From Dictyostelium discoideum (taxonomy: Eukaryota): a stretch of DNA of 64,000 nt. Shown here piece after piece: positions 33,771 to 35,360 of this stretch; the stretch's first letter is position 1; each line of letters begins with the position of its first letter. The stretch is taken from positions 3,168,001 through 3,232,000 of the forward strand of contig CM000155.2 in the NCBI GenBank assembly GCA_000004695.1, read 5' to 3'. Both the position numbers and the translations under genes were made by a program. The notes beneath the pieces are model-generated. The model searched no databases, was not told the DNA's origin, and saw only the letters and a list, made by a program, of their open reading frames with translations.

Positions 33771-35360
33771 ATGGCCGGTGATTTAACTCCTTCATTATTT
33801 TTGAAATATGGTTTTGGTGGTGCTTTGGTATGTTTAATATATTATTAAAAAAAAAACACAAAAAAAAAAAAAAAAACACAAAAAAAAAATGTTGAAAATC
33901 TTACACCACACACAAAATGATCGTTTTTTTTTTTTTAAATTAAATTTTATTTCATATAATTAATCAAAAATTATTTAAAACAAAAAAAAAAAAAAAAAAA
34001 AAAAATATCATTTATTTCTTTGAATAAATTAATTTAATTTAAATAATAATAATAATAATAATAAATAGAGTTGTTCAATTACTCACAGTCTTGTAGTCCC
34101 ACTTGATGTCGTTAAGACTCTCCTCCAAACCAACCCAGGTAATTATTAATATAATTGACAATCACAATCACAATCAATATATATTATATAATAAGAATTC
34201 ATAATATTAATAAATAAAAAAAAAAAAAAAAAAAAAAAATAATTAAAAATAAAGGTAAATACACTGGTATGATGAACGGTTTCAGCACCGTCATTAAGGA
34301 ACAAGGTCCATCTGGTTTATTACAAGGTTTAGGACCAACTGCTGTTGGTTATGCCTTACAAGGTTTCTTAAAATTCGGTTTCTATGAAGTCTTCAAAAAG
34401 ACCTACGCTGATGCTGTTGGTGAAAAAGCCGATCAATTCAGAATCCCAATTTGGTTAGCTGCCTCAGCCACTGCTGAAGTTATTGCTGATATTGCTTTAT
34501 GCCCAAATGAAGCCGTTCGTATTCGTTTAGTTGCTGAACCAACTTTCGCTAAATCACCAGTTGAAGCTTTCGGTAAAATCTTCAAACAAGAAGGTGTCCT
34601 CGGTTTCTACAAAGGTCTCCCACCAATTTTATTAAAAGTAAGTAGTTTTGTATTTAATTTATCAATAAATAAATAAATATACATATACTAATATACACTT
34701 TTTATTTTTATTATTATTATTTTTATTATTATTATTATTTAAATTGGTAATTACAGCAAGGTATGTGAAATTTTTAAAAGATAAATTGTAATTTTTTATA
34801 AATATATATGTAGGTATTTTACTAACAACAACAATTATCCCATTTTATCAATTCAAATTTGAACAAATTTAAAATTATAAATAGTCCCATACACTATGGC
34901 TAAAGTAAGTTGGATAAAATATAATATTAGAATATTTAAAATAATAGTAATCATATTAATATTAATAATAATAATAATATTTTTAAAATTATTTTAGTTC
35001 GCTGTTTTCGAATTTACTGCTGAAAACGTTTACAAAGGTTTAGCCGCCAGTGGTAAACCAAAGGAATCATTAACTGATGGTCAAAAACTCTCTGTTTCAT
35101 TAGGTTCAGGTATTGTTGCAGGTATTGTTGCTGCTATTGTCTCTCAACCAGCTGATACCATTTTATCAAAGATCAATCAAGAAAAGACTGATGGTGGTGT
35201 TGTTAAAGCAATCGGTAACATCATGAGACGTTTAGGTGTTCGTGGTTTATTCTTAGGTCTCCCAACCAGATGTTTCATGGTTGGTACTCTTACTGCCGGT
35301 CAATTCTTCATTTATGATGGTATTAAACAAATGTTAGGTCTCACCCCAGCAAAGAAATAA
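33771..35360 (+). CDS. Mitochondrial phosphate carrier (SLC25A3/Mir1-like), ~298 aa. Exons 33771..33827, 34070..34139, 34255..34637, candidate 4-nt micro-exon 34757..34760, 34885..34904, 34998..35360.
   Basis: Exon translations: MAGDLTPSLFLKYGFGGAL | SCSITHSLVVPLDVVKTLLQTNP | GKYTGMMNGFSTVIKEQG...GFYKGLPPILLK | Q(v) | VPYTMAK | FAVFEFTAENVYKG...MLGLTPAKK*. They match phosphate carrier landmarks (THTAVVPLDLVK, GFYKG, IPYTMMKF). All splice sites are GT..AG with consistent phases. Confidence 0.65.

Follow-up and report, generated by a model that had tools for sequence, protein, structure and literature searches.

A probable 4-nt exon in mcfN, a mitochondrial phosphate carrier gene of Dictyostelium discoideum

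The mcfN gene and the splice paths around CAAG

The window, by which we mean the whole 64-kb stretch of DNA analyzed here, carries mcfN on its plus strand. Spliced translation of the window gives a MIR1-like mitochondrial phosphate carrier, encoded by six coding exons that are separated by five introns. The surroundings of the gene are extremely AT-rich and its coding blocks are short and G+C-richer, which is the pattern of Dictyostelium genes. Exon 1 (33771-33827, plus strand, as are all features of the gene) runs from the ATG to GCTTTG, after which comes the donor GTATGT; the spliced translation that begins here equals the reference protein considered below. Exon 2 (34069-34138) encodes SCSITHSLVVPLDVVKTLLQTNP-, and exon 3 (34255-34637) ends in phase 0 with TTA TTA AAA (...GLPPILLK), before a GTAAGT at 34638-34643. 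The intron that starts with this donor (34638-34756) has 119 nt, a G+C content of 11% and the acceptor AATTACAG. The candidate micro-exon CAAG, exon 4, occupies the four nucleotides 34757-34760: CAA is the codon of Gln171 and G is the first base of Val172 (G + TC). It is followed by an intron of 124 nt (34761-34884) with the donor context AAG/GTATGT and the acceptor ATAAATAG. Exon 5 (34885-34904) is 20 nt long, TCCCATACACTATGGCTAAA (TC CCA TAC ACT ATG GCT AAA; -PYTMAK), with AAATAG before it and GTAAGT after it. The last intron (34905-34997) extends from this GTAAGT to TTTTAG, and exon 6 (34998-35360; TTTTAG/TTCGCT) encodes FAVFEFTAEN ... LTPAKK and closes with the stop codon TAA. Two micro-exons are consecutive in this arrangement, CAAG with 4 nt and 34885-34904 with 20 nt.

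Two features lie outside the coding region. Very long poly-T tracts (33590-33730) extend across about 180 nt 5' of the mcfN ATG, broken only by short C-containing islands. About 430 nt 3' of the stop codon is a 76-nt palindrome (35791-35866) made of two 38-nt arms without a spacer, 97% complementary to each other (GTTATCACAACAACGAAAGATTTTTACACTAACTTAGA / TCTAAGTTAGTGTAAAAATCGTTCGTTGTTGTGATAAC). The palindrome is also found in another D. discoideum strain (L016, 3018-3093), where it lies just outside a minus-strand gene called in that assembly.

A sequence-only reading of this DNA had placed the phase-0 end of exon 3 at 34637 and proposed that CAAG at 34757-34760 is bounded by canonical splice sites (ttacag/CAAG/gtatgt) and that the conserved PYTMAK segment lies at 34885-34904. 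All three placements agree with the bases: the terminal TTA TTA AAA is followed by GTAAGT, canonical AG and GT flank CAAG (34751-34766), and a 20-nt exon with AG before and GT after is present at the third position. Splice paths through this region were then enumerated by taking all GT donors in frame with the acceptor at 34885 and all AG...GT micro-exons of length 3k+1 in the interval. Inclusion of CAAG (model A) gives an open reading frame of 298 aa that reads LLKQVPYTMAKF, and thereby the predicted LLK-Q-VPYTMAK. Use of the donor gtagtt at 34642, which adds GTAA to exon 3 (model B), also gives a 298-aa frame, reading LLKVIPYTMAKF; the earlier mention of this donor as an in-frame way to LLKVIPYTMAK without the micro-exon was therefore correct. 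Joining 34637 straight to 34885 (model C) shifts the frame and leads to a stop. When both small exons are skipped, 24 nt are lost in frame and the product has 290 aa, with LLK joined to FAVF and no QVPYTMAK.

Among the enumerated in-frame paths, KQVP is given by 34757-34760 alone; CAAG is needed for the frame and restores the conserved KQVPYT. Two other candidate micro-exons keep the frame but give sequences that match no homologue, GTAT at 34761-34764 (KVFP) and ATAAATT at 34781-34787 (KINFP). The window has a single copy of the motif AGCAAGGTAYGT, and none of 100 dinucleotide-preserving shuffles has one; since it is absent from the shuffles and conserved in register in three other species, it is no chance match. 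The different paths predict different transcripts. An mRNA that includes the micro-exon would contain TTATTAAAACAAGTCCCATACAC, with the junction ...TTATTAAAA-CAAG-TCCCATAC..., whereas model B predicts TTATTAAAAGTAATCCCATACAC (junction ...AAAAGTAA/TCCC...) and the skipping of both small exons predicts TTATTAAAATTCGCTGTTTTC. Inclusion of the 20-nt exon would be marked in cDNA by CCATACACTATGGCTAAA joined to TTCGCTG.

Conservation of the protein and of the DNA around CAAG

By domain and similarity, mcfN is classed as a phosphate carrier of the MIR1 / PIC2 / SLC25A3 type. It is 53-63% identical to named phosphate carriers (MIR1, a Cu/Pi carrier and SLC25A3) over 96-100% of the query, PF00153 (Mito_carr) is precomputed for all the homologue matches, and mcfN shares with MIR1, PIC2 and SLC25A3 both the Mito_carr architecture and the helix-4 motif [KR]-Q-[IV]-P-Y-T. 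D. discoideum is described as having two MIR1-like copies and no PIC2 (PMC7924939). The two differ in structure: mcfN has five introns, whereas the MIR1-like paralogue of D. discoideum (P0062, L018) is an intronless open reading frame of 900 nt.

The homologues were aligned from the top matches of a homologue search with the models of the D. discoideum clade left out, which gave 119 proteins. Lys170, Gln171, Pro173, Tyr174 and Thr175 are each invariant (119/119), and position 172 is Val in 80 of the 119 and Ile in the other 39. The match to a conserved phosphate-carrier motif, which had been claimed from the sequence, is thus upheld for the Lys-Gln pair and for Val or Ile after it. Every other dictyostelid orthologue has LLKQVPYTMAKF, namely those of P. 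violaceum, C. fasciculata, D. purpureum, T. lacteum and A. subglobosum, and two further ones. In yeast PIC2, Gln176 of helix 4 is a predicted contact point for phosphate, and the Q176A change abolishes arsenate sensitivity, with growth in arsenate like that of the empty vector, indicating loss of transport (PMC7924939). Gln171 of mcfN would correspond to this residue, because its position matches and it is the sole Gln in the aligned columns 162-185. With equivalence judged in this way from position, a glutamine at the helix-4 contact point is present only when the micro-exon is included, as Gln171.

The gene DNA of eight other dictyostelids was compared with that of the window. TTATTAAAA-CAAG-TTCCATACAC (AAA CAAG TTCC), or a synonymous form of it, runs without interruption in D. 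purpureum, P. violaceum, C. fasciculata and T. lacteum, A. subglobosum has AAG CAG GTT CCA, also uninterrupted, and the intronless D. discoideum paralogue has AAG CAA GTA CCT. Because it is contiguous in five other dictyostelids and in the paralogue, CAAG is ancestral exon sequence. The split of the window recurs in D. firmibasis, D. citrinum and D. dimigraforme, with AAA/GTAAGT ... AATTAYAG/CAAG/GTAYGT ... AG/TYCCATAC. The comparison with other dictyostelid orthologues, which had been put forward as a check on the micro-exon, thus comes out in its favor: CAAG is contiguous in five species, and its splice signals are kept in three. The same bases are exonic where the introns are absent.

In the alignment of the four species with the split, CAAG lies in a conserved island. 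The 20 columns around it, comprising 10 nt of the 3' splice site, the exon and 6 nt of the donor, are 85% invariant, against 11% and 24% of columns in the interiors of the upstream and downstream flanking introns, respectively. The 20-nt exon has 18/20 invariant columns and conserved splice sites on both sides. The upstream intron retains an invariant GTAAGT donor in the four species over a length range of 90-210 nt. The 210-nt form is that of D. dimigraforme (L003, 1816-1950), which contains a long (AAT)n / (TAA)n microsatellite and has no wCTAAy match; the other three species have one.

The flanking introns have ordinary splice signals. Introns of D. discoideum have a median length of about 103 nt and a mean of about 143 nt, taking the columns of the published species table as we read them, and their branch consensus is ACTAAT / wCTAAy, with ACTAAT as the commonest motif (PMC2483917). 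The 119 and 124 nt of the two introns are close to these values, and each intron has exactly one match to wCTAAy. The candidate branch site of the upstream intron is ACTAAT at 34687-34692 (plus strand), 64 nt from the acceptor and present in 3/4 species. That of the downstream intron is TACTAAC at 34820-34826 (plus strand), 58 nt from the acceptor and found in 4/4 species with 9/11 columns invariant. Across the whole window TACTAAC occurs no more often than expected (6 times against 6.4), and the weight of this match is its four-species conservation only. A ranking of donor hexamers from sharp drops of G+C in the window was too noisy for use. The -3 to -1 context of the downstream donor (AAG) is supplied by the micro-exon itself.

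A model can be proposed from these signals. CAAG would be spliced constitutively between two ordinary short AT-rich introns, each of which may be recognized as a unit (intron definition), since each has a strong donor of its own (AAA/GTAAGT and AAG/GTATGT), one branch match and an AG acceptor. The two introns would be removed one after the other, because an exon of 4 nt leaves no room for complexes to sit on its two splice sites simultaneously, a line of reasoning also applied to plant micro-exons (PMC8831610). The retained CAAG would complete the helix-4 motif K-Q-V-P-Y-T by providing the codon for Gln171 (CAA) and the initial G of the Val172 codon.

Deposited gene models and alternative explanations

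Over 298 residues, the product of model A does not differ from the AX4 reference protein (Q54BF6.2 / XP_629073.2 / EAL60635.2; exact-sequence look-up), an identity that shows the curators' choice of this model and not the evidence behind that choice. The reference was compared as a protein, and its CAAG exon was deduced by excluding the other enumerated splice paths: as no other enumerated path yields KQVP, the reference protein implies the 4-nt exon. The exon is therefore not new, being already implicit in the curated AX4 reference. Among public gene models of this DNA, only the curated reference has K-Q-V-P. The literature searched contains no description of a Dictyostelium micro-exon, the sole match being a command-line option of TopHat.

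Besides the AX4 reference, 10 models of the clade were examined, nine in the mcfN 90% cluster and the C-terminal half of a split model (mis-modelled set P0003-P0010 and P0130; assemblies L001-L003 and L016). None has CAAG. Two use the spurious donor, four skip both small exons, three are truncated and one is the C-terminal half; the cluster members that skip or terminate in an intron come from D. discoideum, D. cf. discoideum, D. citrinum and D. dimigraforme. One truncated model is paired with a separate C-terminal model that starts at the ATG inside the 20-nt exon. The four skip models (P0006-P0009) lack eight invariant or conserved residues and look plausible as 290-aa annotations because the 24-nt skip of both small exons stays in frame. 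These cases suggest that ultra-short exons are missed systematically in annotations of the D. discoideum clade.

Searches for the product itself gave no matches within their scope. JGI metagenome and metatranscriptome contigs were scanned for exact copies of the spliced junction, allowing any base at the 4 variable positions, with 0 matches. Junction-spanning protein searches returned no D. discoideum transcript-derived fragments, with a 78-aa query so insensitive that it missed even the full-length cluster. The peptide QVPYTMAK appears in no searchable paper and is absent from the supplement of a D. discoideum mitochondrial phosphoproteome, where an N-terminal peptide is the sole mcfN entry. 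The case for the exon is made by the identity to the reference protein, the invariance of the Gln, the contiguous ancestral sequence and the conservation of the splice signals. On these grounds CAAG at 34757-34760 is very probably a real, constitutively spliced 4-nt exon of mcfN, whose mRNA would carry the junction of exon 3, CAAG and the 20-nt exon.

One competitor is model B, in which there is no micro-exon, exon 3 ends in AAA GTA A at the donor GTAGTT, and a single intron of 243 nt (34642-34884) leads to the protein LLKVIPYTMAKF. Its product is in frame, of the same length and free of stops, so that neither the logic of open reading frames nor nonsense-mediated decay can separate it from model A, and it keeps an Ile where 39/119 homologues have one. 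It has also been deposited, as KAM9952499.1, from an automatically annotated assembly of another D. discoideum strain, in which all 1590 nt of the gene agree with the window (100% identity); an analogous automatic model exists for D. firmibasis (KAK5581876.1). However, it puts Val in place of the Gln that is invariant in 119/119 homologues, and so replaces a predicted substrate contact whose alanine mutant is inactive in PIC2 (PMC7924939). Its donor has no G at +5 and begins 4 nt into a perfect GTAAGT. The site is not conserved in the three sister species, which have GTCGAT, GTTTAT and GTTTTA; only the GT is kept, and this belongs to the upstream GTAAGT. Since that GT is positions +5 and +6 of GTAAGT, any donor of this sequence offers the V-I reading by accident. 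Model B also leaves unexplained why an 85%-invariant island surrounds CAAG in the middle of its intron and why CAAG matches the ancestral exon sequence, and we regard it as highly improbable.

The alternative paths might instead be minor products beside a major micro-exon form, through use of the donor at 34642 or skipping of the small exons. Both minor forms are in frame and would therefore escape nonsense-mediated decay, and plant ultra-short exons do show competing splicing and retention of flanking introns (PMC8831610). The resulting carriers would probably be inactive, however, because invariant helix-4 residues are lost or replaced, and the splice signals bordering CAAG are conserved, which suggests that its inclusion is under selection; such a mixture of isoforms appears highly improbable. 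Still harder to credit, to the point of being nearly excluded, is a gene in which both small exons are intronic and exon 3 is joined directly to 34998. Four automatic annotations predict this 290-aa protein and the skip is in frame, but it deletes QVPYTMAK, with a Gln, Pro, Tyr and Thr that are each invariant in 119/119, an octapeptide that all other dictyostelids encode. It would also make intronic a 20-nt exon that is 90% invariant in four species and has conserved splice sites.

Origin of the split and relation to known systems

Both introns that flank CAAG are found only in D. discoideum, D. firmibasis, D. citrinum and D. dimigraforme, and none of the five other dictyostelid orthologues examined has either of them. 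The intron after the 20-nt exon has a different distribution: outside the D. discoideum clade it was found, among the species examined, in D. purpureum only. The most parsimonious reading of this intron distribution is a double gain within group 4. On balance, we lean toward a young CAAG exon, created when two introns were gained 4 nt apart in a continuous exon of group-4 dictyostelids after the split from D. purpureum. Gain before that split followed by joint loss in D. purpureum is less parsimonious. That the second intron is a duplicate of the first finds no support, as local alignments of the two introns score no higher than shuffled sequences in all four species.

A gene model without the CAAG exon predicts an altered, truncated or split transporter in which an invariant Gln codon is affected, and mcfN offers a small, self-contained test, beyond plants and animals, of annotation that takes micro-exons into account. 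A 4-nt exon between clade-specific introns also bears on the origin of micro-exons and of new introns. If the double gain is true, the locus would be a natural, dated case of micro-exon birth, as well as a marker of systematic mis-annotation of ultra-short exons in amoebozoan genomes. The biology of the phosphate carrier is unchanged by the finding; what is added are the annotation failures in sister genomes and an apparently recent exon birth through introns confined to one clade.

CAAG invites comparison with two known systems. Recursive splice sites are juxtaposed AG/GT sequences, in effect zero-length exons, that occur in long introns of Drosophila and vertebrates. CAAG resembles them in that its 3' splice site almost touches its 5' splice site, and stepwise removal is plausible because a good donor context, AAACAAG/GTATGT, would be restored once the upstream intron is out. 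Unlike at recursive sites, the mRNA retains four coding nucleotides, and the introns of mcfN are short, where those with recursive sites extend over tens of kilobases. We therefore reject CAAG as a zero-length recursive site, since the four coding nucleotides must stay to hold the frame.

The other system is that of plant micro-exons. In plants, exons of 1 to 15 nt are validated by RNA-seq and RT-PCR and widely mis-annotated; APC11 and VPS55, for instance, each have a 1-nt exon, and a rice gene has a 5-nt exon next to one of 12 nt (PMC8831610; PMC4674806). CAAG is likewise internal and coding, has canonical AG and GT at its borders, and is needed both for the frame and for a conserved motif. 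It is conserved together with its splice sites, and forms part of one larger exon in lineages that lack both introns. As in plants, it is mis-modelled by automatic pipelines and adjoins a second small exon. The plant examples are validated experimentally, whereas CAAG is known here from the DNA and the proteins predicted from it. The two also differ in setting and age: mcfN belongs to an amoebozoan, its introns are very AT-rich and about 120 nt long, and whereas plant micro-exons are ancient, the split in mcfN appears young and confined to one clade.
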